A stretch of DNA of 34,200 nucleotides from an uncultured bacterium. GTDB lineage: Bacteria > Patescibacteriota > Minisyncoccia > Phycocordibacterales > UBA9973. The notes below the pieces were generated by a model. It was not told the DNA's origin, ran no database searches, and saw only the letters and a program-made list of their open reading frames with translations. The stretch lies in contig CAIVBM010000008.1 of assembly GCA_903904195.1 (NCBI GenBank), positions 1-34,200 on the forward strand, in the 5' to 3' direction. This document shows positions 3,674 to 19,634 of this stretch, in pieces (the first letter of the stretch is position 1; the number at the start of each line of letters is the position of its first letter). Position numbers and translations under genes: made by a program.

Positions 3674-3746
3674 GTATACCCCAACACTTATTTCAAAAAA
3701 TAGTATTATAAAAAGTTTTTGACTTTTAATAAGTGTTCGGGTATAC
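3674..3746. repeat. 19-bp inverted repeat overlapping the rplY promoter
   Basis: GTATACCCCAACACTTATT (3674-3692) / AATAAGTGTTCGGGTATAC (3728-3746), 1 mismatch. Confidence 0.8.
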
Positions 3747-3747
3747 T
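3719..3747 (+). promoter_or_regulatory. sigma70 promoter of rplY, probably giving a leaderless transcript
   Basis: TTGACT-17-TATACT, ATG 6 nt downstream at 3754, no SD. Confidence 0.7.
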
Positions 3748-3753
3748 ATCTTC

Positions 3754-4446
3754 ATGTTTGTAATTAAAGCTGATAAAAGAGATTTGGATACAAAATTAGG
3801 CGTTTTGAGAAAGTCTGGGAAAATCCCAGCTGTTTTTTACGGCGCTGGTGAGAAAACCACTTCTGTGACTATATCTATTACTGAATTCAAGAAAATCTGG
3901 CGAGACGCCGGAGAGTCTTCTGCTATTAAAATCTCAACTCCTACAGGAGATGTAAACGCTCTTATTCATGAGGTTCAAGTTGATCCAGTTACAGATGAGC
4001 CAATACATGTAGACTTTTTGGTTATTGATATGAAGAAGAAAATCCGTGTTGCTGTACCGCTTGTATTTGAAGGAATATCAAATGCAGTCAAGGGTGGTAT
4101 AGGAAACCTAGTCAAAGTTCTTCATGAAGTAGAAATTGAAGCTTTGCCTGCAGATTTGCCACACAACCTTATCGTAGATATTTCAAAGCTTGAGACTTTA
4201 GATAATAGCGTCCTCGTTTCTGATATTAAATTACCAGCAGGAGTCGTTGTTATTACAAATGCAAATGATGTTGTAGCTTCTGTCGTCGCTCAGGTTGAAG
4301 AAAAAGAAGAAGTCGTCGTTGCTCCAGATTTGTCTGCTATTGAAGTTGAAAAGAAAGGTAAGAAAGAAGAAGAAGGAGTTCCAGCAGCTGAAGGAGCCGC
4401 TCCAGCAAAAGAAGAAAAGACAGAAAAGAAGCCTGAAAAGAAATAA
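3754..4446 (+). CDS. rplY: 50S ribosomal protein bL25 (long Ctc/TL5 type)
   Basis: LRKSGKIPAVFYG, HEVQVDPVTDEPIHVDF, beta domain, acidic/lysine tail; ATG 3754 preferred over GTG 3733. Confidence 0.96.
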   Translation: MFVIKADKRDLDTKLGVLRKSGKIPAVFYGAGEKTTSVTISITEFKKIWRDAGESSAIKISTPTGDVNALIHEVQVDPVTDEPIHVDFLVIDMKKKIRVAVPLVFEGISNAVKGGIGNLVKVLHEVEIEALPADLPHNLIVDISKLETLDNSVLVSDIKLPAGVVVITNANDVVASVVAQVEEKEEVVVAPDLSAIEVEKKGKKEEEGVPAAEGAAPAKEEKTEKKPEKK

Positions 4447-4539
4447 AAAAGGTGAGTTTATAATATTTTTTCGTCCTGCGCCCTTCTCCTTTGGAGTGGG
4501 ACCCTCGGACAGAAAAAATTTTATAAACTCACCTTTTTT
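4445..4539. repeat. Long hairpin element with CCCTTC-hairpin-GGGACCC core (family 2, copy A); may also act as rplY terminator
   Basis: Perfect 19-bp IR AAAAAAGGTGAGTTTATAA/TTATAAACTCACCTTTTTT, continuing through ATTTTTTC/GAAAAAAT and GTCC/GGAC. Confidence 0.85.
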
Positions 4540-4557
4540 TATGATACAATAAAAGCT

Positions 4558-5922
4558 ATGACGAGAAATACAGTCATAGTTTTTATTTTTCCACTTATTG
4601 TTGTTATGTTTGTTTTTTCCTTTATTTTTGCACCGACAGCAAGAGCTGATTTTGATTGTTTGACCCTCACTGTGTCATCTGCTCAATCCGACAAAGATTA
4701 TTGTCAAAATCAACTAACTCAAATAGAAGCTCAACTTACGGATTTATTAAATCAACAAGCAGAACAACAGAAAACCACGGGCACATTAAAAGGTGACGTG
4801 AATTATTTGACCAGTCAAATAAATGCTTTAAAAGTAAAAATAAAAGCCAGAGCTTTAACCATCGCCCAGCTAAAAGTAAACATTACAGAAAAAGTTAATA
4901 CTATTAATTCGCTTTCCGACAAGATAGATAGAGAACACGAATCTTTGGCCCAATTACTCAGAAATACAAATGAATTTGATGATTCAAATTTAGTTGATTT
5001 AGTCCTTTCAAATAATAGTATTTCCAATTTCTATTCTGATTTAGAGTCTTATACTTTTATAAAACAAGCCATAAAATCATCGGTTGATATAATCAATGGA
5101 GTAAAAAAACAAAATGAAGTAGCAAAACAAGATCTCGTAAATAAGCAAAACGCTGAAACGGACGCAAAGGCAGAATTAGAAAGTGCTCAAAAGGCTGTGG
5201 CAAAATCAGAAGCAGACAAGAAACAGCTTTTAGCTATTTCTAAAAATAAAGAGCTTGAATATCAAAAATTAGCGGCAGCAAAAAAGATGCAAGCAGATAA
5301 AATACGTAGCGCCCTCTTTAGCCTCGCTGGTATTTCACAAAAAATAGATTTCGGTACAGCTCTCAACTATGCCAATGAGGTAAAAAGTAAATTAGGAATT
5401 GATCCTGCGTTCTTGTTGGCCATTATGACCCAAGAATCAAATCTAGGAGGAAATGTCGGCCAGTGCTATCTGACCAGTCCTGACACAGGTGGAGGAGTGG
5501 GGAAAAATACCGGAACATTTTTCGCAAATGTTATGAATCCTACCAGAGATGTGCCAGTATTTTTGAGCATGACTGTTGATTTGGGAATAAATGCTTACAA
5601 GACGGCGGTTTCTTGTCCGATAGCAGGAGCTGGTGGTTATGGTGGAGCGATGGGTCCGGCACAATTTATTCCTTCAACTTGGAAAATGTTTGCCAGTCGT
5701 TTGAAAGATCTTTTGGGTTATATTGCTAATCCTTGGGCACCCCGTGACGCATTTATGGCTTCTGGAATGTATTTATCTGATCTTGGGGCAGTAGGCACTA
5801 GCACCAGCGCACAAAACAGAGCAGCTTGTAGCTATTATGGCACCAGAGGGTCTTCATGTACTTATAGCAGAAGTGTTCAGAAATTAAAGTCTACGATTCA
5901 AGCCAATATAGATTTGCTTTAA
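4558..5922 (+). CDS. Secreted coiled-coil protein with C-terminal lytic transglycosylase (SLT/lysozyme-like) domain
   Basis: Signal peptide ending in ARA, long heptad region, catalytic QESNLG, GAMGPAQFIPSTW. Confidence 0.88.
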   Translation: MTRNTVIVFIFPLIVVMFVFSFIFAPTARADFDCLTLTVSSAQSDKDYCQNQLTQIEAQLTDLLNQQAEQQKTTGTLKGDVNYLTSQINALKVKIKARALTIAQLKVNITEKVNTINSLSDKIDREHESLAQLLRNTNEFDDSNLVDLVLSNNSISNFYSDLESYTFIKQAIKSSVDIINGVKKQNEVAKQDLVNKQNAETDAKAELESAQKAVAKSEADKKQLLAISKNKELEYQKLAAAKKMQADKIRSALFSLAGISQKIDFGTALNYANEVKSKLGIDPAFLLAIMTQESNLGGNVGQCYLTSPDTGGGVGKNTGTFFANVMNPTRDVPVFLSMTVDLGINAYKTAVSCPIAGAGGYGGAMGPAQFIPSTWKMFASRLKDLLGYIANPWAPRDAFMASGMYLSDLGAVGTSTSAQNRAACSYYGTRGSSCTYSRSVQKLKSTIQANIDLL

Positions 5923-5951
5923 AATAGAATTCGTGATAATCTTTTTAAACA

Positions 5952-6170
5952 ATGAAAAAAGATATACATCCAAAATACGACATAAAAACAAAGGCTACCT
6001 GCGCTTGCGGAGCTGTTTTTGAGGTTGGTTCTACTATGCCAGCTATCTCAATGGAAATCTGCAGTCAATGTCATCCTTTTTATACTGGAAATGAAAAAAT
6101 CATGGACACCGCTGGACGCGTAGAACGTTTCAACAAGCGACGTGCTGCAACTGCTAAAGTTAAGAAGTAA
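5952..6170 (+). CDS. rpmE: 50S ribosomal protein bL31 (Zn-binding type)
   Basis: [27 protein letters not shown]. Confidence 0.97.
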
Positions 6171-7136
6171 ATGAATCTAGAAGAAATAAAAAAAGATCAT
6201 AGGACTAGCTATCTAGCGAGCAGTCTAGAGAAGCTTTTGCGTGAAGAAGCGGAAGTGCGAGAGATGCTCGCAAGTGATGACAGTTTGCATGAGATGGCAG
6301 CAAAAGAATTAAAATTTATTCAAGAAGAAAAAGAAAGAATAGAAAAACAAGTACAAGAAATCCTAGATAAAGACAAAGCAGAAGAAGAATTTCCAAACGA
6401 AATAGTTTTAGAAGTGCGAGCTGGCGCAGGGGGAGACGAAGCAAGCCTTTTTGCGTGGGAGTTAGCACATATGTATGAAAAGTTCTCCGAGGCCGAGGGT
6501 TGGCAGTGGAGGGTGAACTATGAATCAAAAAGTGATTTAAATGGTTATAAAGAAGCGAGCTTTGAAATAAAAGGAAAAGACGTTTACAGAAAAATGCGAT
6601 ATGAAACAGGCGTGCACAGAGTGCAGAGAATGCCAGCGACAGAAAAGAACGGCAGGATACACACGTCTACAGCCTCAGTGGCAGTGTTACCGATAAGAAA
6701 AAAAGTCACGATAAAAATTGATCCTTCAGAATTTGAAATGGAATATTCTCGTTCTGGTGGAAAGGGTGGACAAAATGTAAACAAGGTTGAGACGGCTGTG
6801 CGTATAATTCATAAACCTACAGGGCTGGATGTGCGTTCTACTAATGAGCGAAGTCAGTTAGCAAACAGAGAAAAGGCTATGTCTATTTTGACTGCGAAAC
6901 TTCAACAACTTGAAGAGGAAAAGGAAGCGAAAAAGTATGCAGGAGAGCGCAAAGAACAAATAGGTACAGCAGATAGATCAGAAAAAATCCGCACTTATAA
7001 TTTTCCGCAAGACCGAGTGACAGATCATCGTATAAAGAAATCTTGGCATAATTTACCAAAGATAATGGAAGGTGGAATAGGGGAAATAATTAAAGACATT
7101 GAAACGGGTGCAGTTGGAAATGAGGCTGAAGAATAA
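6171..7136 (+). CDS. prfA: Peptide chain release factor 1
   Basis: GVHRVQRMPAT (PxT motif of RF1), GGQ motif, RSEKIRTYNFPQDRVTDHR. Confidence 0.96.
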   Translation: MNLEEIKKDHRTSYLASSLEKLLREEAEVREMLASDDSLHEMAAKELKFIQEEKERIEKQVQEILDKDKAEEEFPNEIVLEVRAGAGGDEASLFAWELAHMYEKFSEAEGWQWRVNYESKSDLNGYKEASFEIKGKDVYRKMRYETGVHRVQRMPATEKNGRIHTSTASVAVLPIRKKVTIKIDPSEFEMEYSRSGGKGGQNVNKVETAVRIIHKPTGLDVRSTNERSQLANREKAMSILTAKLQQLEEEKEAKKYAGERKEQIGTADRSEKIRTYNFPQDRVTDHRIKKSWHNLPKIMEGGIGEIIKDIETGAVGNEAEE

Positions 7137-7269
7137 TTATTTTTCTATTTGCTTTTCGATTTTAATATGGTATTCTCTTAGATGTAGTTTCTCACTTAGC
7201 GAAAAGAGTTTCTACGTTTTATTAAGTAGTTTTTTGTCCTTTTTATTAAAAAAGGAAGAAGTAAAGAAA

Positions 7270-7590
7270 ATGGCTACAAAGCTATATGTAGGGGGTCTTC
7301 CTTACAGCACAGTCGAAAATGCTCTTAAAGAGCTTTTCGCACAGGCTGGAAACGTTGTTTCCGCTGTGATTATTATGGACAAGATGTCTGGTCGTTCAAA
7401 AGGTTTTGGATTCGTAGAAATGTCATCACAAGATGAGGCTGCAAAAGCTATCTCGATGTTCAACGATCAAGAATTCGAAGGACGCAAACTTACTGTCAAC
7501 GAAGCTCGCCCTATGGAAGCTCGCCCACCACGTTCTGGAGGCAATGACCGAGGCGGTTACGGGGGAGGAAGCGGACGAAGAGAATACTAA
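7270..7590 (+). CDS. Single-RRM RNA-binding protein with Gly-rich tail
   Basis: RNP2 LYVGGL and RNP1 KGFGFVEM; real start MATKLY at 7270, not 7099. Confidence 0.93.
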   Translation: MATKLYVGGLPYSTVENALKELFAQAGNVVSAVIIMDKMSGRSKGFGFVEMSSQDEAAKAISMFNDQEFEGRKLTVNEARPMEARPPRSGGNDRGGYGGGSGRREY

Positions 7591-7611
7591 TTTAAATTTA
7601 GATCTCAGATT

Positions 7612-7644
7612 AAACAAAAAACCACCTTGGGTGGTTTTTTGTTT
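7612..7644. terminator. Intrinsic terminator after the RRM gene
   Basis: AAACAAAAAACCACC-TTG-GGTGGTTTTTTGTTT perfect IR with T tract. Confidence 0.85.
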
Positions 7645-7701
7645 GCTTTAAGTTATTATTTTTGTTATATTTTCTGCACGGCTTCTTGTATTTTTTATTT
7701 T

Positions 7702-7729
7702 CTAGAACCTAGAAGCTAGTCCCTAGAAC
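7702..7729. repeat. Heptamer tandem repeat (CTAGAAC/CTAGAAG/CTAGTCC/CTAGAAC) before tRNA-Ile
   Basis: Four 7-nt units starting with CTAG. Confidence 0.7.
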
Positions 7730-7739
7730 CTGTATTTTT

Positions 7740-7811
7740 GAGTGTGTAGTTCAGTGGTAGAACGCTGTCCTGATAAGACAGAGGTCGAAGGTCCGATTCC
7801 TTCCACACTCA
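7740..7811 (+). tRNA. tRNA-Ile(GAT), CCA not encoded
   Basis: Acceptor GAGTGTG/CACACTC, anticodon stem CTGTC/GACAG with loop CTGATAA, T stem GAAGG/CCTTC. Confidence 0.93.
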
Positions 7812-7887
7812 CTAGGTATTTTCTTCACATTTGCATCCAACATATTTTTCATTTATACTAGAATAAAGCCGTGAGGGCTTTGTTTTT

Positions 7888-8163
7888 GTGATTAATAAAG
7901 ACAATAAAAAAATAGATTGGAAACCAGCATTTGATATATTCAGCAAGGTTTCGACTTGGGTCATAGTGCCTATAATTTTGGCACTAATAATCGGAAAGGC
8001 ATTAGATAAACATTACGGCACGGATCCTTGGATATTCTTAGCTTGCACCGGTTTAGGATTTATAATTTCTTCATATGGTATCGTGCGAGTAGTTTTTAAA
8101 TATATGAAGACTTTAGAGATGGAAGATAAGAATAAAAAAGAAATAAATAATATTAATAAATAA
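7888..8163 (+). CDS. atpZ: AtpZ/AtpI-family two-TM ATP synthase accessory protein
   Basis: Two TM helices around IGKALDKHYGTDPW; first gene of atp cluster; promoter TTGCAT-17-TATACT upstream. Confidence 0.8.
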   Translation: MINKDNKKIDWKPAFDIFSKVSTWVIVPIILALIIGKALDKHYGTDPWIFLACTGLGFIISSYGIVRVVFKYMKTLEMEDKNKKEINNINK

Positions 8164-8165
8164 TA

Positions 8166-9303
<1,138 letters not shown>

Positions 9304-9462
9304 TTTGAAAATTTTAAATAGCTTCTTTTAAAAAGCAATCTATCTGGCGAAGCTTTGGGAGCGTTCTGCTCGTCGATCAAGAAAATAATAAATGGATTAC
9401 CATTTTTATTTTCTAATCTCCTGCGCAAGGCTTTTTAAAAGAACTATTTTAAATTTTTTAAA
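9304..9462. repeat. Structured palindromic element family 1, copy 1 (atpE-atpF spacer)
   Basis: Terminal IR AAATAGCTTCTTTTAAAAAGC/GCTTTTTAAAAGAACTATTT and two internal hairpins; reverse complement aligns with 14260-14394. Confidence 0.92.
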
Positions 9463-9471
9463 TATAAACAA

Positions 9472-9933
9472 ATGGATTCAATTATATCTACATTTCACAT
9501 AGACTGGAAAATCATTGTTGCTCAAGCGATAAACTTTGTTATTGTTTTTGTTGTTTTATATATTTTCGCTTTAAAGCCACTTTCTAAATTGATGGCAGAA
9601 CGCGCAGAAAAGATAAAACAAGGTTTAGTTGATTCAAAGAAAGCTAATGAATTATTGCAAAAAGCTGGTGAAGAATATAAGGAAAACACAATTAAACTTC
9701 GAAAATTTTCAGTAGATGCTCAAAAAGAACTTCAAAAAGATTTGGAAAAATTAAGAGCAGAAAATATAGAAAGGATAAAAAAAGACGAAGAGGAATATAA
9801 AAAGAAGAGAATGGCGCAAATGGAATTAGACAAGAAAGCTTTAATTGAGTCGGCCACAAAAGAAGTCATATCTTTGGCGATGCTTGCCACAGAGAAATTA
9901 ATTAGTAGTAAGAAAGATTTAAATAATTTATAG
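9472..9933 (+). CDS. atpF: ATP synthase Fo subunit b
   Basis: N-terminal TM (QAINFVIVFVVLYIFALKP), ERAEKI, coiled coil; operon position. Confidence 0.92.
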   Translation: MDSIISTFHIDWKIIVAQAINFVIVFVVLYIFALKPLSKLMAERAEKIKQGLVDSKKANELLQKAGEEYKENTIKLRKFSVDAQKELQKDLEKLRAENIERIKKDEEEYKKKRMAQMELDKKALIESATKEVISLAMLATEKLISSKKDLNNL

Positions 9934-9944
9934 AATATATTTTA

Positions 9945-10355
9945 ATGTCAGTAACATCAAACAATGACATAGCTCGCGCTATCTACCTTATGTCCAAAGA
10001 TAAGAGTAGTTCGGAGCAGAAAAATATATCTGAAAAAGTGGTTAAATTTTTATTTAAAAAAAGATTATTGTCAAAAGCCCCCGATATATTATTACGGCTT
10101 AAGAAAATAATAAATGGTGAGGAGGGAAGAATAGAAGCGAAAATATCAAGCGTAGAAGCCCTCAGTCATCAGACAAAAACATCCTTGGAGCAAGCTTTAA
10201 AAAAACGTTATTCCGTAAAAGAAGTTACTTTAAAAGAAAATATAGATAAAAAATTATTAGGTGGAATAAAAATAGAAGTGGATGACGAAGTAGTTGACCT
10301 TTCAGTCAAAAATAAAATTAATAAATTACAAGAATATTTAACAAAGACCGTATGA
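9945..10355 (+). CDS. atpH: ATP synthase F1 delta subunit (short form)
   Basis: C-terminal [26 protein letters not shown]; operon position. Confidence 0.9.
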
Positions 10356-11854
10356 ATAGCAATACAATCGTAGAAAACTTAAAAAAAGAGATAGAAAACT
10401 TTTCACTTCAAATGAAGGTTGAAAAGGTGGGTAAAGTCGTTGAGGTTTTTGATGGTATTGCGAAAGTTTCTGGACTTTCTGATATCAAATCTTCTGAAAT
10501 GGTGACTTTTCCAAACGGTGAGACAGGAGTAGCACTCAACCTCGAAGAAGATGCAGTCGGAGTTATTATCCTTGGTGATTTTTCTAAAATAAAAGAAGGT
10601 GATGAAGTCAAAGCAACAGGAAAAATTCTTGAAATTCCAGTAGGAGACAGTATTTTAGGCCGTGTAGTAAATGCTATCGGAGCGCCTATTGATGGTAAGG
10701 GAGCTATCAAGGCTTCAAAGACATATCCAATTGAAAAAGTGGCTCCAGGAGTCGTCACCAGACAGGCTGTGGATCAAGCCGTCGCTACTGGTATCAAAGT
10801 TATTGATGCCATTATTCCAGTCGGACGTGGACAACGTGAACTCATCATCGGCGACAGACAGACAGGAAAAACAGCTATCGCAATAGATGCTATTTTAAAC
10901 CAAAAAGGCCAAAACATGATTTGTGTTTATGTTTCTATCGGACAAAAAGATTCAAAACTTCGTAAATTAGGAGCACGATTGGAAGCTGGTGGTGCTATGG
11001 ATTACACAGTCATAGTTTCTGCCGGAGCATCTGAAGCAGCATCTATGTCATACATCGCTCCGTATGCTGGAGTATCTATTGCAGAATACTTTATGGATCA
11101 AGGAAAAGATGTGCTCATTATTTACGATGATCTTTCAAAGCACGCCGTGGCTTATCGTGAAATCTCTCTTCTCCTTCGCCGACCACCAGGACGTGAAGCA
11201 TATCCAGGAGACGTTTTCTATTTACACTCTCGTTTATTAGAACGAGCTTGTAGACGAAATGCTAAATATGGAGGTGGTTCTATCACTGCACTTCCTATAG
11301 TAGAGACACAAGCCGGTGACGTGTCTGCATATATTCCTACGAACGTTATTTCTATTACTGATGGACAGATTTTCTTGGAGACAGATCTTTTCTACAAAGG
11401 TATTCGTCCAGCAGTCAACGTCGGTCTTTCCGTCTCTCGTGTTGGTTCTAGTGCGCAAATAAAAGGAATGAAGAAAGTTGCTGGAACATTAAAACTTGAC
11501 CTTGCGCAGTTCCGTGAACTTGAAGCGTTTGCTCAATTCGGTTCAGACCTTGATGAGTCCACAAAGAAACAGCTTGAGCGTGGTAAAAGAGCTGTTGAAG
11601 TTTTGAAACAGCTTCAATATTCTCCTATTAAAATTGAGAATCAAATCGTTACTTTGTACGCTCTCACCAAGGGTTATATGGATGATGTTGCAATTGATAA
11701 GATAAAAGAATTTGAAAATGGACTTGTGGAATATTGTGAACGTCATGCAAAAGTTTTCTACAAAGAAATCAAAGAGTCCAAGATGTGGACAGACAAAGGT
11801 GAAATGGAATTAAAAAAGGCTATTGCGGATTTCAAAGTAGGCTTCAGTAAGTAA
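10352..11854 (+). CDS. atpA: ATP synthase F1 alpha subunit
   Basis: [38 protein letters not shown]. Confidence 0.99.
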
Positions 11855-11862
11855 AATAATTT

Positions 11863-12774
11863 ATGGCAGGGACAAAAGAAATCAAAAGAAGAATAAAGAG
11901 TGTGAAGAACACAAAAAAGATCACCAAAGCGATGGAGCTGGTGGCTGCTAGTAAGATGAAGCGAGCCGTTTCTTCTACTCTGGCTTCACGTTTATATGCA
12001 GGATATTCTTCTGAAATTCTTTCTTCTATAGCAAAAAATATCGAGGAAAATTACCACCCGCTTTTCACTGAAAGAGAAAAGAAGGGTGAAGAGAAAAAGA
12101 ATGTTTTACTCGTGCTTATTACTTCAAACAGAGGTTTGTGTGGAGCTTATAATGCGCAAGTTATAAAGAAAACCATTGCATTTTTAAAAAGTCAGAATAT
12201 AAATTTGGAAGTTGTTTCAGTCGGTAAAAAAGGAGATGTGGCAATGCGCAGACTAGGCATAAATGTTATCGCTTCTTTTACAGATTTGAGCGACAAGATT
12301 TCTTTATCTGAAATTCTTCCAATTTCAAAATTAACAATAGACGAATATACACTTCTTCATTACGATAAAATTTTAGTGGCTTACACTGATTTCGTTTCAG
12401 CTTTGACTCAAAGACCTAACATTAAACAAATCCTCCCCGTTTCTAAAATGAAAGTACAAGAACTGATAGATAATTTAGAAAAAGATAAATCCGGAGAAAA
12501 AGCAGAAGACAAAAAAGTAAATTATCTGATAGAGGGGGACATGGAAACACTTATCGGGTCACTTGCGGAAAAGATAACGAGGATGCAAATATATCAAATG
12601 TTTCTAGAATCAAATGCTTCAGAACAATCCAGTAGAATGATCGCCATGAAAAACGCCTCAGATGCTTCAGGAGAAATGATAGATGATTTGACTCTAATGT
12701 TTAACAAAGCAAGACAAAGCAACATTACAAGAGAGATATCGGAAATAAGCGCAGGTATGGCAAGTGTAAGTTAA
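11863..12774 (+). CDS. atpG: ATP synthase F1 gamma subunit
   Basis: KITKAMELVAASK, SNRGLCG, RQSNITREISEI. Confidence 0.98.
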   Translation: MAGTKEIKRRIKSVKNTKKITKAMELVAASKMKRAVSSTLASRLYAGYSSEILSSIAKNIEENYHPLFTEREKKGEEKKNVLLVLITSNRGLCGAYNAQVIKKTIAFLKSQNINLEVVSVGKKGDVAMRRLGINVIASFTDLSDKISLSEILPISKLTIDEYTLLHYDKILVAYTDFVSALTQRPNIKQILPVSKMKVQELIDNLEKDKSGEKAEDKKVNYLIEGDMETLIGSLAEKITRMQIYQMFLESNASEQSSRMIAMKNASDASGEMIDDLTLMFNKARQSNITREISEISAGMASVS

Positions 12775-12797
12775 TGATAGTATATTATAAATATGAA

Positions 12798-14404
<1,607 letters not shown>

Positions 14405-14412
14405 ATAATTTT

Positions 14413-14862
14413 ATGTCAACAAAACAATTAAAATTAAAAATAATCACTCCAGAACGACTTGTTTTGGAAGAAATGATAGACCAAGTCACTTTGCCAACCA
14501 TCGAAGGCGAAGTCACTATTTTGCCAGACCATATTCCCCTTATTGCTGGTTTGTCTTCAGGAGACATTGTGGCTTTTACCAGTGGTGAACATGTGCCGAT
14601 GGCTGTCGTGGGTGGATTTGTGGAAGTAAAGAAGAATAAAAATAAAATCACCGAAGTAGCCGTCTTGGCTGATTTTGCTGAAACTATGAACGAACTCTCC
14701 GAAGAAAAAATAGCTCAGGCAAAAGCTCGCGCCGAAGAATTGAAAAAGCAGATGGAAAACAAAGACCATGTTGACTTTGAACATTTCGAAGCCGAACTCG
14801 AACGTTCTCTCACTCGCATCAAAATTGCCGACAAATGGCGAACGAGAAAGTATAGGAAATAA
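14413..14862 (+). CDS. atpC: ATP synthase F1 epsilon subunit
   Basis: LKIITPER, GEVTILPDHIPLI, VVGGFVEV, C-terminal helical hairpin. Confidence 0.96.
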   Translation: MSTKQLKLKIITPERLVLEEMIDQVTLPTIEGEVTILPDHIPLIAGLSSGDIVAFTSGEHVPMAVVGGFVEVKKNKNKITEVAVLADFAETMNELSEEKIAQAKARAEELKKQMENKDHVDFEHFEAELERSLTRIKIADKWRTRKYRK

Positions 14863-14977
14863 AACCTTATATTTGCTTGATTTTTTAATTTTTTAGTGAT
14901 AGTTTCAACTCGAAGGCGTTTGTTCAAGCCTTGTGGCTTTTTGTCAATTTAAACAACCAACACAAGAAGGGGTAAAT

Positions 14978-16021
14978 ATGAATATGAGACAAGGGTTAGA
15001 GCTTAGGCAGGTTCCAACAACGTTCATCATCGGTGATAGTTTGCATGCGAGGCATATGCGTCGTTTTGCCAAACGATTAGCGGGGACAACGTATCCGGTT
15101 CTTATAAGCGGGGAAACCGGAGTGGGAAAAGAAGTTGCCGCCATGGAGATTCACAGGCACGAGCAATCAGATGTTCCATTTGTTCCGGTGAATTGCTCTG
15201 CTCTCAGCCGTGATCTTTTTGAGAGCGAAATGTTTGGTCATAGGAAGGGTTCGTTTACGGGTGCAGTTGATGACAGGGAAGGTTTCCTAGAGTCGGCCGG
15301 AGATGGAATGGTTTTTCTTGATGAAGTAGGGACTTTGTCTCTTGCTTTACAAGTGAAACTCCTTCGCGTTCTGCAGGATGGAAAATTCAATCCGGTTGGT
15401 GAAAGGCGGCAGATTCAAATGAAAGCTAGAGTTGTTGCCGCGACCAATATCGACCTGCAAGAGTCAATACGGAAAGGAGAGTTTCGTTCGGATCTCTTCT
15501 ACCGTCTGAACGTAATCCTGTTCAATGTCCCACCCTTACGAAAGCGCTTGGAGGACTTGCCGTTGCTCGTTGAGTACTTTCTTCAAAAGGAGGGTTTGTC
15601 GAAAAAGTTTACGGCGAGCGCCTTAGTAGCAATGGGCAGCTATGACTGGCCGGGCAATATCCGCCAACTTGGAAACATTGTCCGCCGAGCAGTGTTCTTG
15701 GCTGATGAATGTGAACAGGTTGGTGTAGAACACATTAAGCTGTGCATCGAAGAAGCTGGGACGGACGGCGACGGAAGTAGTAAGAATGTTTGTCCTGATT
15801 CTTTTGTTGAGAAAGCTGCAACTAACGGAAGGTTTCCAACCTTACGGGAAGTGAAGAAGGTCTACTTGTGCGAACTTCTTAAACGAACCGGAGGAAACAT
15901 GACAAGAAGTAGTCGAATATCAGGTTTGACACTCAGGTCAATGAGAAATTGGGTTAGGTCGTTTGGTTTAAAAGATCTAGTTCGCTCAATCAAGAAAGAA
16001 GTAGAAGAAAAATTCACATAA
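14978..16021 (+). CDS. Sigma54-interaction AAA+ protein (bEBP, NtrC/PspF-like) with Fis-type HTH and no sensor domain
   Basis: Walker A GETGVGKE, ESEMFGHRKGSFTGA, Walker B FLDE, FRSDLFYRL, WPGNIRQL, C-terminal HTH; SD-like AAGGGG before ATG 14978. Confidence 0.92.
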   Translation: MNMRQGLELRQVPTTFIIGDSLHARHMRRFAKRLAGTTYPVLISGETGVGKEVAAMEIHRHEQSDVPFVPVNCSALSRDLFESEMFGHRKGSFTGAVDDREGFLESAGDGMVFLDEVGTLSLALQVKLLRVLQDGKFNPVGERRQIQMKARVVAATNIDLQESIRKGEFRSDLFYRLNVILFNVPPLRKRLEDLPLLVEYFLQKEGLSKKFTASALVAMGSYDWPGNIRQLGNIVRRAVFLADECEQVGVEHIKLCIEEAGTDGDGSSKNVCPDSFVEKAATNGRFPTLREVKKVYLCELLKRTGGNMTRSSRISGLTLRSMRNWVRSFGLKDLVRSIKKEVEEKFT

Positions 16022-16037
16022 CAGAAAGGAAAATATT

Positions 16038-16082
16038 CAAGAACCGGAAAAGGACGCAGGCGCGGCCGCCGGTTCTTTTTCA
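16038..16082 (+). terminator. Probable terminator after the bEBP gene
   Basis: AAGAACCGG...CCGGTTCTT followed by T tract. Confidence 0.55.
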
Positions 16083-16116
16083 TTTGTGTTATAGTATAAT
16101 CGTTTAATAAAATAAC

Positions 16117-16821
16117 ATGTCAAAATTTTACGTTGTGGCGACGCCGATAGGAAACATGGGGGACATCACGTTTCGCGCGATTGAGACGCTGAAGGGCGTG
16201 GATTTGATATTATGCGAAGATACTCGGCAGACTAAAAAAATTTTGGAAAAATACGCAATAAACAAGGAGACTCTGAGCTATCCGTCAGACGATGTGGCGG
16301 GGAAGGGTTATGTGTTCGGCAAGAATGAAAAATTAGATAAAATTTTCAGGCTTTTATACGAAGGTAAAAATCTGGCGCTGGTGTCAGACGCCGGCACGCC
16401 CACAATATCCGATCCGGGCGCGATGCTTGTTTCTAAAATAAAAGAAAAATTTACAAATGAAGAAGTGCAAGTGATTCCGATTCCCGGAGCGTCAGCCGTG
16501 ATAGCCGCACTCTCGGCTTCCGGATTGCCGACTCACGAATTTACTTTTCTGGGATTTCTTCCGCACAAAAAAGGCAGAGAAACTCTGTTTAAGGAAATCG
16601 CAATTTCCGAGCGCACGATGGTATTTTATGAATCTCCGCACAGGATTTTGAAAACTTTAGAATCGCTTGTGAAATTTTGCCCAGATAAAAAAATCTGCGT
16701 CGCCCGCGAACTGACAAAAATTTACGAGGAATTCAAAACAGGCACACCGGTAGAAATTCTAGAATATTTTAATAAGAATACCGAAAAGCAAAGAGGTGAG
16801 TTTACCGTTATTGTCTCCTAA
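16117..16821 (+). CDS. rsmI: 16S rRNA C1402 2'-O-methyltransferase
   Basis: YVVATPIGN, CEDTR, LVSDAGTPTISDPG, FYESPHR, ARELTK. Confidence 0.96.
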   Translation: MSKFYVVATPIGNMGDITFRAIETLKGVDLILCEDTRQTKKILEKYAINKETLSYPSDDVAGKGYVFGKNEKLDKIFRLLYEGKNLALVSDAGTPTISDPGAMLVSKIKEKFTNEEVQVIPIPGASAVIAALSASGLPTHEFTFLGFLPHKKGRETLFKEIAISERTMVFYESPHRILKTLESLVKFCPDKKICVARELTKIYEEFKTGTPVEILEYFNKNTEKQRGEFTVIVS

Positions 16822-16851
16822 AAATAGCTAGGCAAGACCTAGCTATTTTTA
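16819..16851. terminator. REP-like palindrome and bidirectional terminator spanning the stop codons of two convergent genes
   Basis: TAAAAATAGCTAGG-CAAGA-CCTAGCTATTTTTA; same core recurs at 18677-18701. Confidence 0.8.
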
Positions 16852-17172
16852 TTTATTCAAATTGTGCTTCAGACATGTAATGATAGACCAATCAAATTTT
16901 CCCTTGGACGCGAGGTATTTCATTTTGTCTAAAGCCCAGATAGCGTCGTCTAGGACTTCATTACAAGCTTGGTAGAGCATCTTTGCTTCTTTTGCTAATT
17001 TATTATATGCATATCTACCGGTGTAAAAATCTTTTGGCATTTTTTCCCAACCATTCATTTTATAATAACAATTCACGATTTCATGAACAGGGTTTACGGC
17101 AGATTTGTGTTTTTGTAAGTTGGCTAAATATCCTGCAAACGGGTTCTTTAGATTGTTTTCTATGTCATTCAT
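16849..17172 (-). CDS. Hypothetical protein (107 aa)
   Basis: Fills the gap between rsmI and mreB; TGcTAAAAT box 6 nt before ATG. Confidence 0.7.
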   Translation of the reverse strand: MNDIENNLKNPFAGYLANLQKHKSAVNPVHEIVNCYYKMNGWEKMPKDFYTGRYAYNKLAKEAKMLYQACNEVLDDAIWALDKMKYLASKGKFDWSIITCLKHNLNK

Positions 17173-17208
17173 CCTTTGATTTTAGCATAAATATGATAAC
17201 ATAGGCTC

Positions 17209-18222
17209 ATGGGTATTTTCACTAAAAAATTAGGCATAGATTTGGGAACAGCCAACACCTTGGTTTTTTTACCTGGCAAAGGAATTATCCTAAACGAGCC
17301 TTCTGTCGTAGCTGTTTCTGAACAAGACAATAAAATTCTAGCTATTGGTTTTGAAGCAAAAGACATGATAGGTAAAACTCCAGAATCCATCATCACTTAT
17401 TGTCCGATGAAAGACGGAGTGATAGCGGACTATAGAGTGACAGAGGCGATGCTTCGTTATTTTATAAATAAAGCGATGGGAAAGTTTAATTTATTTAAAC
17501 CTGATGTGATGGTTTCTGTTCCAGCTGGAGTCACGAGTACAGAAAGACGAGCCGTGATTGAGGCAGCAATTCGCGCTGGAGCAAAGAATGCTTATGTGGT
17601 TAAAGAGCCCATCTTGGCAGCTATCGGTGCAGGGATTCCTATTTATGAATCTAGAGGTCATATGGTGGTAGACATAGGTGGAGGTACGACGGACGTGGCG
17701 GTGATATCTCTCGGAGGAATAGTGTCCTCAAAGTCTGTGAAATGTGCTGGAAATAAAATAGATGCTGCGATAGCTGATTACATCAAGAAAACTTTTAATC
17801 TTGCGATAGGTGACAGGACGGCTGAAGAAGTCAAAATCAAAATCGGTGCAGCAGTTTTGCTCGAAGAAGAATTGAGTGTGACGATAAAAGGACGAGATTT
17901 CATTCAAGGCTTGCCTCGTTCAGCGCGAGTGGGTACAAATGAAATAGTGCGCGCAATAGACGGAGAATTAAAACAAATTATCAAGGCTATTAAAGATGTG
18001 TTGCAAGAAACTCCGCCAGAACTAGCTTCAGATATTATTGATCAAGGTATCATTATGACTGGAGGTTCTTCTCAATTACGAAATTTCACTGACTTGGTTT
18101 ATCGTAAGACAGGGGTAAAGGCGATGCTAGCCGAAGATCCTCTATTTTGTGTGGTTAAAGGCACGGGTATAGCTCTAGAACATTTGGATGTGTATAAGAA
18201 AGCTGTTTTAAGTAAAAAATAA
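17209..18222 (+). CDS. mreB: Rod shape-determining protein MreB/Mbl
   Basis: GIDLGTANT, EPSVVA, DIGGGTT, TGGSSQL. Confidence 0.97.
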   Translation: MGIFTKKLGIDLGTANTLVFLPGKGIILNEPSVVAVSEQDNKILAIGFEAKDMIGKTPESIITYCPMKDGVIADYRVTEAMLRYFINKAMGKFNLFKPDVMVSVPAGVTSTERRAVIEAAIRAGAKNAYVVKEPILAAIGAGIPIYESRGHMVVDIGGGTTDVAVISLGGIVSSKSVKCAGNKIDAAIADYIKKTFNLAIGDRTAEEVKIKIGAAVLLEEELSVTIKGRDFIQGLPRSARVGTNEIVRAIDGELKQIIKAIKDVLQETPPELASDIIDQGIIMTGGSSQLRNFTDLVYRKTGVKAMLAEDPLFCVVKGTGIALEHLDVYKKAVLSKK

Positions 18223-18225
18223 GTT

Positions 18226-18291
18226 CTTTAAAAATTTGAAATAATACTTTTAAAAACCCGCTTTTAAAAGCACTATTTCAAATTTTTAAAG
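18226..18291. repeat. Core-less relative of family 1 (arms only)
   Basis: Perfect 18-bp IR CTTTAAAAATTTGAAATA/TATTTCAAATTTTTAAAG plus CTTTTAAAA/TTTTAAAAG; arms align with those of 9304-9462. Confidence 0.75.
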
Positions 18292-18299
18292 CCAAGATT

Positions 18300-19070
18300 A
18301 TGCTTTCAAAACATTTAGATAAAAATAATTTACATCACGCATATCTCATAGAAGGAGATAGGGAAAAAGTTGTTCCTGAAATTTTAAAATTTTGTGAAAG
18401 CTTGGATATAAAGACTTCTGGCAATCCTGACTTTTGTCATATATCAATTGATAATTTTAAAATTGAAGAAGCTTTAAATCTTCGTGGTATGGGAAGTAAT
18501 AAAGGTTTTTCTCAAGGTAAAAAAGTATTTATTGTCAGTTCAAATAGTTTTACTCTTGATGCTCAAGGCACGTTGTTAAAGATGTTTGAAGAGCCGATAG
18601 AAAATACGCATTTTTTCTTAGTTATGCCTGACACGAGTTCTCTTTTAAAAACTCTTATTTCAAGGTTTTACCTAATTTCAGCTAGGCAAGGCCTAGCTGA
18701 AGAAGAGATAAAAGATGCAGAGAAATTTATTAGTATGCCCTTAAGAAACAGAATTGATTTTATTAAAGAATTATTAATTGAATCTGAAAATGAAGACGGA
18801 GAGGGTAATGAAATAGTTGCTCTAGATTCTACTCGTTCAAAAGCCTTAAAATTTTTAAATGCACTCGAAAGTTCTATGCAAAACAAGTTTCTAAAAAATT
18901 ATTCAGGCTTAACCCTTCCCGGAGTACCGGTTGGGACCCACACCGTTCAAAATTCTTTAGAAACTTGTTTTGCGCACATTTTTAAAGTTCGTGAGTTTCT
19001 ACGAATGCCAGGAAGCTCAGCAAAAACTTTGATGGAATCGGTGGCTTTGATTATTCCAGAGAAAATATGA
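18300..19070 (+). CDS. DNA polymerase III delta-prime-like protein (degenerate HolB) carrying palindromic insertions
   Basis: HHAYLIEG, NPDF, AQGTLLKMFEEP, LLKTLISRF. Confidence 0.75.
   Translation: MLSKHLDKNNLHHAYLIEGDREKVVPEILKFCESLDIKTSGNPDFCHISIDNFKIEEALNLRGMGSNKGFSQGKKVFIVSSNSFTLDAQGTLLKMFEEPIENTHFFLVMPDTSSLLKTLISRFYLISARQGLAEEEIKDAEKFISMPLRNRIDFIKELLIESENEDGEGNEIVALDSTRSKALKFLNALESSMQNKFLKNYSGLTLPGVPVGTHTVQNSLETCFAHIFKVREFLRMPGSSAKTLMESVALIIPEKI
18677..18701. repeat. REP-like palindrome inside coding sequence (encodes SARQGLAE)
   Basis: TTCAGCTAGG-CAAGG-CCTAGCTGAA; core shared with 16819-16851. Confidence 0.8.
18878..18973. repeat. Family 2 hairpin element, copy C, in-frame inside the holB-like gene
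   Basis: 23-bp IR (1 mismatch) GCAAAACAAGTTTCTAAAAAATT/AATTCTTTAGAAACTTGTTTTGC around CCCTTC-CCGG-AGTA-CCGG-TT-GGGACCC; 96 nt. Confidence 0.85.
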
Positions 19071-19082
19071 TATAGTAGGACC

Positions 19083-19634
19083 ATGCAATATAATTTTTCA
19101 GTTTTTAAGACAGAATTAAAAAAAGTAGGAGATTTTCTGGCTAAAGAATACAGCCAATTAAACATAGGCCGAGCTTCACCGATGGTGCTAGATGGTGTGT
19201 CTGTGGAGTCTTATGGTTCTCGTGTTCCGTTAAAAAATGTTGCAAATATAAACATTGAAGATCCAAAGACTTTACGCATTGCGCCTTGGGATAAAAGTCA
19301 GGTTAAGGAAATAGAAAAAGCGATTGTGGCTTCTAACCTCGGATTGTCTGTGGCTACTGATGACCTAGGTATCAGAGTTATTTTTCCTCAATTGACTACA
19401 GAGACAAGGCAATCACTCGTAAAAGTGCTTAAAGAAAAATTAGAAGAACAGAGGATTACCGTACGTCGAGAACGAGAACGAATTTGGAAAGATGTTGAAG
19501 ATAAAGAAAAATCAGGTAAATTGACTGAAGATGAAAAATTTAAGGCAAAAAATGAATTGCAAAAAATTATTGATGAAATAAATAGAAATCTAGAAACAAA
19601 TTTTGAGAAAAAACAAAAAGAAGTGATGGGGTAG
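19083..19634 (+). CDS. frr: Ribosome recycling factor
   Basis: IGRASP, YGSRVPL, IAPWDK, PQLTTETR. Confidence 0.95.
   Translation: MQYNFSVFKTELKKVGDFLAKEYSQLNIGRASPMVLDGVSVESYGSRVPLKNVANINIEDPKTLRIAPWDKSQVKEIEKAIVASNLGLSVATDDLGIRVIFPQLTTETRQSLVKVLKEKLEEQRITVRRERERIWKDVEDKEKSGKLTEDEKFKAKNELQKIIDEINRNLETNFEKKQKEVMG

Follow-up and report, generated by a model that had tools for sequence, protein, structure and literature searches.

Small palindromic elements with copy-specific, probably target-derived stems in a small bacterial genome

Results

Three hairpins and two core families

In a 34,200-nucleotide stretch of DNA from an uncultured patescibacterium (GenBank assembly GCA_903904195.1, contig CAIVBM010000008.1, positions 1 to 34,200; hereafter the window, contig C8 of genome G000), we found three hairpins on the forward strand, copy A at 4445-4539, copy B at 12798-12875 and copy C at 18878-18973. 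As far as sequence comparison can tell, these are probably copies of two small non-coding families of mobile elements acting at the DNA level, with stems that would be largely inverted target flank, laid down by a probable fold-back template switching. Three hairpins of 78-96 nt had been picked out at these positions in an earlier reading of the same DNA (the original prediction), and an inverted-repeat scan of the whole assembly (679-kb, 37% GC, 54 contigs; arms of at least 14 nt, at most one mismatch, loops of at most 70 nt) recovered them independently, among 80 inverted repeats observed vs 6 in the block shuffle that served as control. The heptamer GGGACCC or its complement occurs at 24 sites genome-wide, 16 of which lie within hairpin elements of this kind. 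A reading of GGGWCCC as a restriction site was dropped, the 8 sites outside the elements being about what is expected from base composition (hand arithmetic).

Copy A, an inverted repeat with arms of 19 nt and a loop of 57, lies between the stop codon of rplY and a promoter-like box of the next gene, and has a T-run on its 3' side. Its conserved unit, made of inner A/T arms and a GC core, spans 4465-4520, flanked by outer arms at about 4445-4463 (5') and 4521-4539 (3'). Copy B, with perfect arms of 17 bp and a loop of 44, sits in a 115-nt spacer between two open reading frames (ORFs) named atpG and atpD, and has its conserved unit at 12807-12866. Copy C, with arms of 18 nt and a loop of 60, extending to 23 nt with one mismatch, is in frame in a holB-like gene, where it is read as ...QNKFLKNYSGLTLPGVPVGTHTVQNSLETCFA..., and its conserved unit lies at 18897-18955. 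Each hairpin was folded as RNA and compared with 200 shuffles, none of which was as stable: copy A folds at -45.4 kcal/mol (z -9.3), copy B at -40.6 kcal/mol (z -8.6) and copy C at -34.9 kcal/mol (z -5.5).

Covariance models built from two alignments, R1 from the A/C core and R2 from the type B core, recovered exactly the 17 copies of this genome, namely seven of type A and three of type C (together the A/C family, 10 copies) and seven of type B; within the window R1 matches copy A at 4465-4520 with 74.4 bits and the unit of copy C with 68.8 bits, and R2 matches copy B with 89.2 bits. The motif CCCTTC-[small hairpin]-NN-GGGACCC that had been said to unite copies A and C is real, and its small hairpin covaries. 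The extent given for this shared core had to be corrected, the conserved unit being longer and taking in an A/T-run inner arm (AAATTTTTT / AAAAAATTT) to reach about 56-61 nt in total, and in place of the branched core that had been proposed we found a stacked hairpin with internal loops. The doubt expressed about the membership of copy B was well placed: type B is a core family of its own, and there is no type B copy among the 10 copies found with the A/C model. The seven type A copies follow the pattern ...TTTTTTC-GTCC-TGCG-CCCTTC-[hairpin]-GT-GGGACCC-TC-GGAC-AG-AAAAAA..., the three type C copies keep CCCTTC-[hairpin]-NN-GGGACCC with their helices in a different frame, and the seven type B cores read GGTCTGGCCGGG...GGGACCCGGAGAACCGAGGACC, one of them, taken from the repeat scan, having GGGGCCCC instead.

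Both alignments carry strong covariation. For A/C, 91.5% of the cells pair, 10 pairs have changed on both sides, and 29 cells are two-sided changes with none one-sided; for B, 98.5% of the cells pair, with 6 compensatory pairs and 7 two-sided changes, again with none one-sided, and in both families the observed covariation score exceeded all 500 shuffles. Two checks had been put forward with the original prediction, a search for further copies genome-wide and a covariance-model search, and both returned copies: 10 A/C and 7 B in this genome, with GGGACCC enriched in hairpins, and a wide occurrence in the genus. Searches of 101 genomes of the genus and of 119 other genera of the order placed A/C in 70/101 genus genomes (about 250 matches) and B in 72/101 (about 305 matches), and the A/C model gave weak matches in 3 of the 119 other genera. 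The compared genomes are separate but mutually related species, and counts across them are thus not independent. The genus tallies include G076 (loci L083, L149, L242 and L279), an unpublished genome for which the depositors' permission is needed to publish, and no conclusion rests on it alone. A/C and B are two families specific to a genus of small genomes of the candidate phyla radiation (CPR) kind.

Further GC-rich core families are present in this genome, at C2:1090-1199 and C26:22114-22220, at C22:138-221 and C54:4831-4914, and at C5:3345-3442, C45:12252-12338 and C53:4034-4126. Among these further families, D and F have long copy-specific arms and E has conserved arms, and the pseudouridine synthase gene of a different species (L137) has a family D core in frame.

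Outer arms specific to each locus

The terminal inverted repeats had been described as unrelated between copies, and this is borne out: at positions 10-18 from the core, outer arms of different copies are 26-31% identical, and this holds alike for cores that are less than 70% or 85-95% identical. Since the outer arms are unrelated whatever the identity of the cores, we consider that they are made at each locus. The same can be seen within one genome (G013), where loci L181-L183 have core and inner arm in common and unrelated outer arms. Conservation does extend to the innermost 8-10 nt of each arm (AAATTTTTT and similar sequences), which belong to the unit.

The uvrA gene gives the best comparison of filled and empty sites, because its flanks are highly conserved. 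The set comprised 30 genus loci and 80 metagenome relatives, of which 106 were examined and 85 anchored, which left 73 distinct alleles. Of these, 35 are empty and 8 carry a type C core that is intact; the other 30 are decayed or hold a different insert. No palindrome is present in the empty alleles, which read ...E-K-I-K-N-L-E-K-K-N-K-R-K-V-M.... Each of the 8 intact alleles has as its 5' arm the K-N-L/F-G/E-K-K-N codons of its own lineage and as its 3' arm their reverse complement over 16-26 nt, with at most two mismatches, after which the native K-K/S-N-K-R-K-V-M resumes, leaving a direct repeat of about 9 bp. The identity of the 5' arm is 0.95 to its own 3' arm vs 0.38 to the 3' arms of other alleles. 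In the alleles that were measured the insertion is 81 nt long, which the unit (about 52), an inverted flank copy (about 17-20) and the direct repeat (about 9) make up together. The signature can be written a0-t-U-t'-a0'-t, where t is the direct repeat of about 9 bp, and the repeat is placed after the inverted flank copy.

Two further loci have a native arm and its inverted copy. At uvrC, the 3' arm of each of the two type B alleles (L366, L369; 2/2) mirrors its own native 5' flank. After rplY (3733-4446, forward strand, ribosomal protein L25/TL5, Pfam Ribosomal_L25p and Ribosomal_TL5_C), whose stop codon adjoins the 5' arm of copy A, the element was absent from the 170 nt 3' of the gene in the other genus loci (0/29, of which L259 and L262 are possibly mis-anchored), and the native spacer of L269 matches the 3' arm of copy A together with the promoter-like box that follows it. 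From this match it follows that the inverted copy is the arm next to the stop codon, the 5' one. It had been suggested that an element whose insertion duplicates the flank in inverted form should leave one of its arms in empty orthologous sites, and such a pre-existing arm is what we see at uvrA, at uvrC and after rplY. Two observations that had been brought forward for this idea also hold, in that the arm of copy A begins in the rplY stop codon and the arms of copy C are protein-coding. The holB site of copy C is filled in 3/15 orthologs. Type B in the atpG-atpD spacer is represented by copy B alone among 25 readable genus spacers, and the arms of copy B contain pieces like the relatives' native spacer, but these overlap the inner arm that belongs to the type B family itself.

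One could suppose instead that palindromes such as bidirectional terminators or earlier palindromic insertions were there first and received the GC core in their middle, so that both arms would be older than the element. Several observations fit this: copy A and many intergenic copies lie between an A-run and a T-run, like the simple terminators of this genome, long perfect AT-rich palindromes occur that enclose no core (C45:153-190 and C27:4298-4334 among them), the coding hot spots also hold other small palindromes, and the empty holB allele L007 is already quasi-palindromic at 6/8 positions (by eye). We nevertheless regard this explanation as quite unlikely, as none of the 35 empty uvrA alleles has a palindrome at the site, and no palindrome with the arm sequences concerned was seen in the 24 other readable atpG-atpD spacers or in the 29 rplY spacers. 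The uvrA allele of the metagenome relative L314 carries, about 100 nt 5' of position 1501, a bare palindrome without a core, its arms fused at GAATTC. It keeps the element's inner-arm sequence, so that it looks like what is left after core loss, namely the remnant of a deletion between directly repeated inner arms.

Observations that weigh against target-derived stems

A number of observations count against the reading of the stems as inverted target flank laid down by fold-back synthesis. No filled/empty pair between close strains, and no intermediate of any kind, was found among the assembled metagenome contigs. The holB arms are a mosaic: native coding sequence of relatives (L010, L006) is matched by the 5' arm in its inner part and by the 3' arm in its outer part, and some of the 5' flank there has been overwritten (converted) and not inserted. 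A formal test of outer arms against empty sites, of low power, beat all controls in 2 of 13 scored alleles (the 5' arms of L223 and L102), and in it the ligA arms and one pseudouridine synthase allele scored at control level. A clear direct repeat was found only at uvrA and in one uvrC allele, L370, and none was seen flanking the element at rplY or holB; in L370, moreover, the whole hairpin stands between 9-bp direct repeats, like an ordinary MITE (a miniature transposable element with inverted repeats). Some arms are common to different loci of this genome (C32/C52, C33/C38, and type B C7:5338/C8:12834 over 14 nt), which means that part of the stem can travel with the element, and the inner 8-10 nt of the arms do move with it. 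On the CCCTTC strand the arm mismatches of the 81 A/C copies of the orientation sample described below are asymmetric, 35 A.C/C.A vs 10 G.T/T.G, an asymmetry that counts against our reading since a symmetric mutational process does not predict it. Finally, in other genomes a flanking motif AG-CTTCG ... CTTCG-CT, or a variant of it with the left pentamer inverted, is found around many type A copies, which suggests a sequence-specific target and hence an enzyme. As a general target the CTTCG flank was set aside, being clear in this genome only at the C33 copy. The inverted flank duplication linked to insertion, as originally proposed, is therefore supported in part, namely at uvrA, for type B at uvrC and 3' of rplY. 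At holB the arms are a mosaic, and at ligA and the pseudouridine synthase gene support did not rise above controls.

Several of these observations speak for another explanation, in which the whole hairpin, arms included, would be the mobile unit, moved as folded single-stranded DNA by a Y1 (HUH) enzyme like the transposases associated with repetitive extragenic palindromic (REP) sequences (RAYT), or by a DDE transposase with 9-bp duplications. Only foldable copies would then move, so that arms would diverge by compensatory change, and the likeness of arms to flanks would be target choice or chance. The arms common to different loci (C32/C52, C33/C38), the 9-bp direct repeats around L370 and the target-like CTTCG motif around many type A copies are compatible with this explanation, and the asymmetry of the mismatches would fit a form folded from one strand. 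Candidate enzymes are also at hand. This genome has five RAYT-like Y1_Tnp genes, four of them above the Pfam cut-off (C32:9258-9884(-), C14:10005-10688(+), C29:21487-22128(-), C27:21927-22553(-) and C40:7773-8456(+)), such genes occur in 71/101 genus genomes, and their co-occurrence with A/C is mildly positive (both in 55 of the 101 genomes, A/C only in 15, Y1 only in 16, neither in 15; hand count). IS256-like, IS4-like, IS630-like and rve transposase genes are found on short contigs.

We consider this explanation unlikely all the same. It leaves unexplained both the native, lineage-specific coding arm in 8/8 uvrA and 2/2 uvrC type B alleles and the occurrence of the same core with unrelated outer arms. 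In genomes G013 and G063, with 9 and 14 copies, a search for Y1_Tnp at E up to 1e-5 gave no match, each RAYT gene of this genome is flanked by its own, different small palindrome and not by A, B or C cores, and no A/C or B match adjoins a RAYT gene among the matches listed (by eye). HUH transposition is not known to make duplications, which we also count against it, and a coarse check of the contigs with IS256-like, IS4-like, IS630-like and rve genes gave neither end similarity nor core motifs. RAYT was accordingly rejected as the mobiliser of A, B and C, there being no adjacency and only imperfect co-occurrence, and DDE insertion sequences were rejected as parents, no end similarity having been found in that coarse check.

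These candidate genes have some features of their own. The same hairpin stands on both sides of the C14 RAYT gene, and likewise at C27, and the small palindromes that flank RAYT genes are probably the hairpins that the original prediction listed as its first family. RAYT genes are typically described as single-copy, vs five in this 0.68-Mb genome. The short contigs C1 (3157 nt), C13, C12 and C9 (about 2 kb each), with genome-like GC, carry IS256-like (E 8e-111), DDE_Tnp_1, rve and DDE_3 transposase genes, and C1 starts with a tandem repeat of about 20 nt. A reverse transcriptase gene (RVT_1) lies at C45:38998-39615(-), in an open frame of 330 residues. With adjacency and co-occurrence checked for RAYT and end similarity for the insertion-sequence contigs, no link of the RAYT-like, RVT_1 or DDE genes to A, B or C was found.

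Residence in genes, orientation and turnover

Six of the 17 copies of this genome lie in ORFs, those of UvrA, the NAD-dependent ligase LigA, UvrC, the delta-prime subunit (holB), an RluA-type pseudouridine synthase and a class V aminotransferase, and in these six the palindromic repeat is in frame with an open frame read through it. Orientation was scored, with a crude open-frame test, for 81 A/C hairpins, all distinct, drawn from this genome, L030-L059 and L161-L220. Type A copies are sense in 19 cases, antisense in 9, outside ORFs in 27 and ambiguous in 4. Type C copies are in ORFs in 20 of 22 cases, all sense and in a single reading frame (...S-G-L-T-L-P-G-V-P-G-G-T-H-T...). Type C copies stand, for example, at 18897-18955 in the window, C31:17455-17513 and C48:1154-1212, and all three sense frames of the type C core are open. 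The 22 type C copies represent about 10 host loci, with insertion mostly directly 3' of an AAT (Asn) codon. Relative to the genes next to them, at least two intergenic type B copies of this genome point each way, and in different species type B is found in both orientations at one LigA loop.

This loop illustrates how quickly the sites change. Among 30 genus loci, the LigA zinc-finger loop is empty in 4 and holds type C in 4, type A in 1, type B sense in 1 and type B antisense at 4 loci by pattern and 3 more by eye, the remainder having other palindromes. In a LigA tree built with the insert columns removed, one clade of support 98 brings together type A, type B and empty states with type C, which appears in it twice, and one species with type B and one with type C are sisters (support 97). 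A similar picture of turnover was obtained for the pseudouridine synthase, UvrA and UvrC, where small REP-like palindromes are also found at these sites. Filled and empty states are scattered over the trees, with 4 changes for 4 type C rows in LigA (28 rows) and 6 for 6 in uvrA (30 rows); both trees are quick and weakly resolved, so that an old insertion with losses looks the same in them as repeated insertion.

The original prediction had offered a structured RNA motif on a freely covarying stem as the other explanation. Read in this way, the hairpins would be, for example, terminators, processing sites or regulatory motifs, and selection would keep the long stem. The inner helices do covary strongly, the folds are very stable, the loop of the C26 copy is of the UUCG type, a T-run follows copy A, and type C is almost always sense (20/22). 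Rfam at gathering thresholds, however, gave only 3 tRNAs in the window and no family for the hairpins, and with permissive thresholds 14 copies gave only microRNA-like hairpin matches far below gathering scores. As for intrinsic terminators, copy A has its T-run but 6/17 copies are inside genes and type B is found antisense to its neighbours. Types A and B occur in both orientations, many copies are in frame in essential genes, different families swap rapidly at one site between sister species, and arms stay perfect after the core has decayed. The paired columns have no G-U intermediates, no change being one-sided, and the sense-strand arm mismatches are mostly A.C, which is unpaired in RNA. 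Together, the two orientations, the in-frame copies, the lack of G-U intermediates and the A.C arm mismatches argue against a strand-specific RNA function. We judge a functional RNA to be highly improbable, and these observations argue for A, B and C being selfish elements at the DNA level rather than having a function at the RNA level.

How the arms are kept

Between species, the arms at orthologous sites show differences that are present on both sides, as in the pseudouridine synthase gene, where GTGTGTTC, GTATGTTC, GTGTGTAC and GCCTGCTC each face their complement. Arms are still matched in L139, L288 and L312, where the core has decayed. The A/C, B, D and F cores are unrelated, yet each has long copy-specific arms, and we take this to mean that the making or keeping of arms is independent of the sequence of the core. 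The arm mismatches are concentrated where inner and outer arm join, 7-10 nt out from the core.

A possible mechanism

We hypothesise that the mobile unit consists of the GC-rich stacked hairpin of about 45 nt plus the short A/T-run inner inverted repeat, which would together be the conserved 56-61 nt, and that it lands in AT-rich DNA, either in tight intergenic spacers or in the Lys/Asn-rich surface loops of housekeeping proteins. In protein loops it would persist only with an open frame and be translated as an extra loop, and read-through of the element in the UvrA, LigA or holB product would give a peptide ...SGLTLPGVPVGTHT.... The long copy-specific stem would lie outside the unit and be made on site from the target, about 10-20 nt of one flank being copied as its reverse complement to the other side of the unit, and sometimes the opposite flank being overwritten to match instead. 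The strong GC hairpin could let the nascent strand snap back, copy itself over about 20 nt and return to its template. Repeated fold-back events might later carry changes from arm to arm, or lengthen the stem by overwriting the other flank, and such arm-to-arm copying would explain how arms can diverge fast between lineages with Watson-Crick perfection kept. Processes of this kind have been described elsewhere, template switching being reported to give perfect stems in one event, stem extension and multi-base compensatory changes, the route proposed being hairpin-loop priming (PMC8794818).

We infer the fold-back step from its end products. The unit itself might be moved by a trans-acting transposase or by template switching of an enzyme-free kind. 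A bolder version, which we put forward only tentatively and find rather doubtful, is that the elements spread and build their stems without any dedicated transposase, by a replication-borne transposition that makes target-derived inverted repeats. In this version the nascent strand would switch to a donor copy via A/T-run microhomology and copy the GC hairpin, then snap back, copy about 20 nt of the new flank in reverse and return to the template, which would produce a0-t-U-t'-a0'-t.

The window in metagenomes and its other features

Near-identical DNA to positions 9500-19400 of the window is present in assembled lake-water/freshwater metagenome contigs of two studies, which share 0.98-0.46 of the sampled words with it and of which one run is possibly the sample that the genome came from, and positions 4000-19500 gave many matches to assembled lake/freshwater metagenome contigs, from related organisms. 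Several identical metagenome contigs end inside hairpins, at 12845, 12862, 18941 and 18944. Among the assembled metagenome contigs compared with 4000-19500 there was no clean empty allele of copies A-C. One metagenome joint, 4378 -> 4540, was not used for any conclusion.

The ORF 5' of copy B (11863-12774, forward strand), to which the name atpG was given in the original prediction, is conserved in 58/61 genus genomes and served as the probe for orthologous spacers, and the ORF 3' of copy B (12890-14254, forward strand), there called atpD, has a protein start like that of its relatives. The holB-like gene that hosts copy C (18300-19070, forward strand; DNA polymerase III delta-prime, Pfam DNA_pol3_delta2, E 3.7e-15) is matched in 40/41 relatives. 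Upstream of rplY and overlapping its start, a hairpin at 3674-3746 has 19-bp arms around an AT-rich, promoter-like stretch, a very similar hairpin is found 5' of an apparent rplY in G075 (L262), and this may be a conserved leader or regulatory structure. Other perfect inverted repeats of the window lie at 18226-18291 (arm 18, loop 30; just 5' of holB), 16819-16851, 7612-7644, which resembles a simple bidirectional terminator, and 2910-2944.

Discussion

The elements described here belong to a kind already known, that of palindromic selfish DNA, and their new feature is the target-derived stem. Closest in behaviour are the Rickettsia palindromic elements (RPEs), which, like those found here, are small, palindromic and non-autonomous, live in a reduced genome and come in several families per genome (PMC10969869). 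An RPE family consensus spans the whole element, ends included, whereas here the outer arms of different copies are only 0.26-0.31 identical. RPEs are also about 150 bp long, compared with a conserved 56-61 nt with a copy-specific, target-derived stem in our case, and their host lineage differs; the two were compared by description only. RPEs have been described as inserting in frame in unrelated housekeeping genes and being read through as an extra peptide (PMC10969869).

The GC clusters of yeast mitochondria (for example GC42) offer another parallel, being, like our elements, GC-rich hairpin units of about 40 nt that are mobile and sporadic in a very AT-rich genome. The account available to us gives them a constrained structure, merging, rapid turnover and no known dedicated enzyme (PMC4478555). 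GC42 differs in its 2-nt (AG) target, its mostly intergenic position and its residence in an organelle, and that account, as far as it covers the point, describes no target-derived long arms (PMC4478555). Template-switch hairpins resemble ours in being perfect reverse-complement copies of adjacent sequence, with stem extension and one-step compensatory changes, but the work describing them, in the parts that bear on this, concerns rRNA and microRNA genes and not a companion of a dispersed mobile core (PMC8794818). In the present elements the process would operate systematically, over hundreds of insertions.

Like MITEs, the present elements are non-autonomous. Two further likenesses are partial: the conserved A/T-run inner arms form a short inverted repeat of a terminal-like kind but are of low complexity and internal to variable arms, and a direct repeat of about 9 bp was seen at two sites, at uvrA not simply flanking the element. 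Unlike MITEs, they gave no parent insertion sequence with matching ends in a coarse check. REP sequences and REPINs with their RAYT are short hairpin-forming repeats as well, but no RAYT gene here has A, B or C cores on its sides, and the pattern of variation is opposite: in REPINs the arms are conserved and the loop varies, in the A, B and C elements the core is conserved and the arms vary. In RPEs, GC clusters, MITEs and REPINs alike the dominant inverted repeat is borne by the element, and here it is copied from the target. A literature search, supplementary files aside, found no published description of these elements in CPR, Patescibacteria or Saccharibacteria.

Inverted repeats normally belong to the mobile element, and a repeat copied from the target, as here, suggests that insertion is regularly accompanied by fold-back DNA synthesis. 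The elements also offer a natural system, with hundreds of events, for the birth, extension and upkeep of palindromes. They also have practical consequences for genome analysis, in that they break assemblies, contigs ending inside them, and in genome scans look like structured RNAs, terminators or covarying stems. For the organisms themselves, which have minimal genomes, the elements add 18-30 residues to UvrA, UvrC, LigA and the delta-prime subunit, and with this gain of residues and the quick turnover at the same loops they generate variation in protein length and can be used as markers in strain typing.

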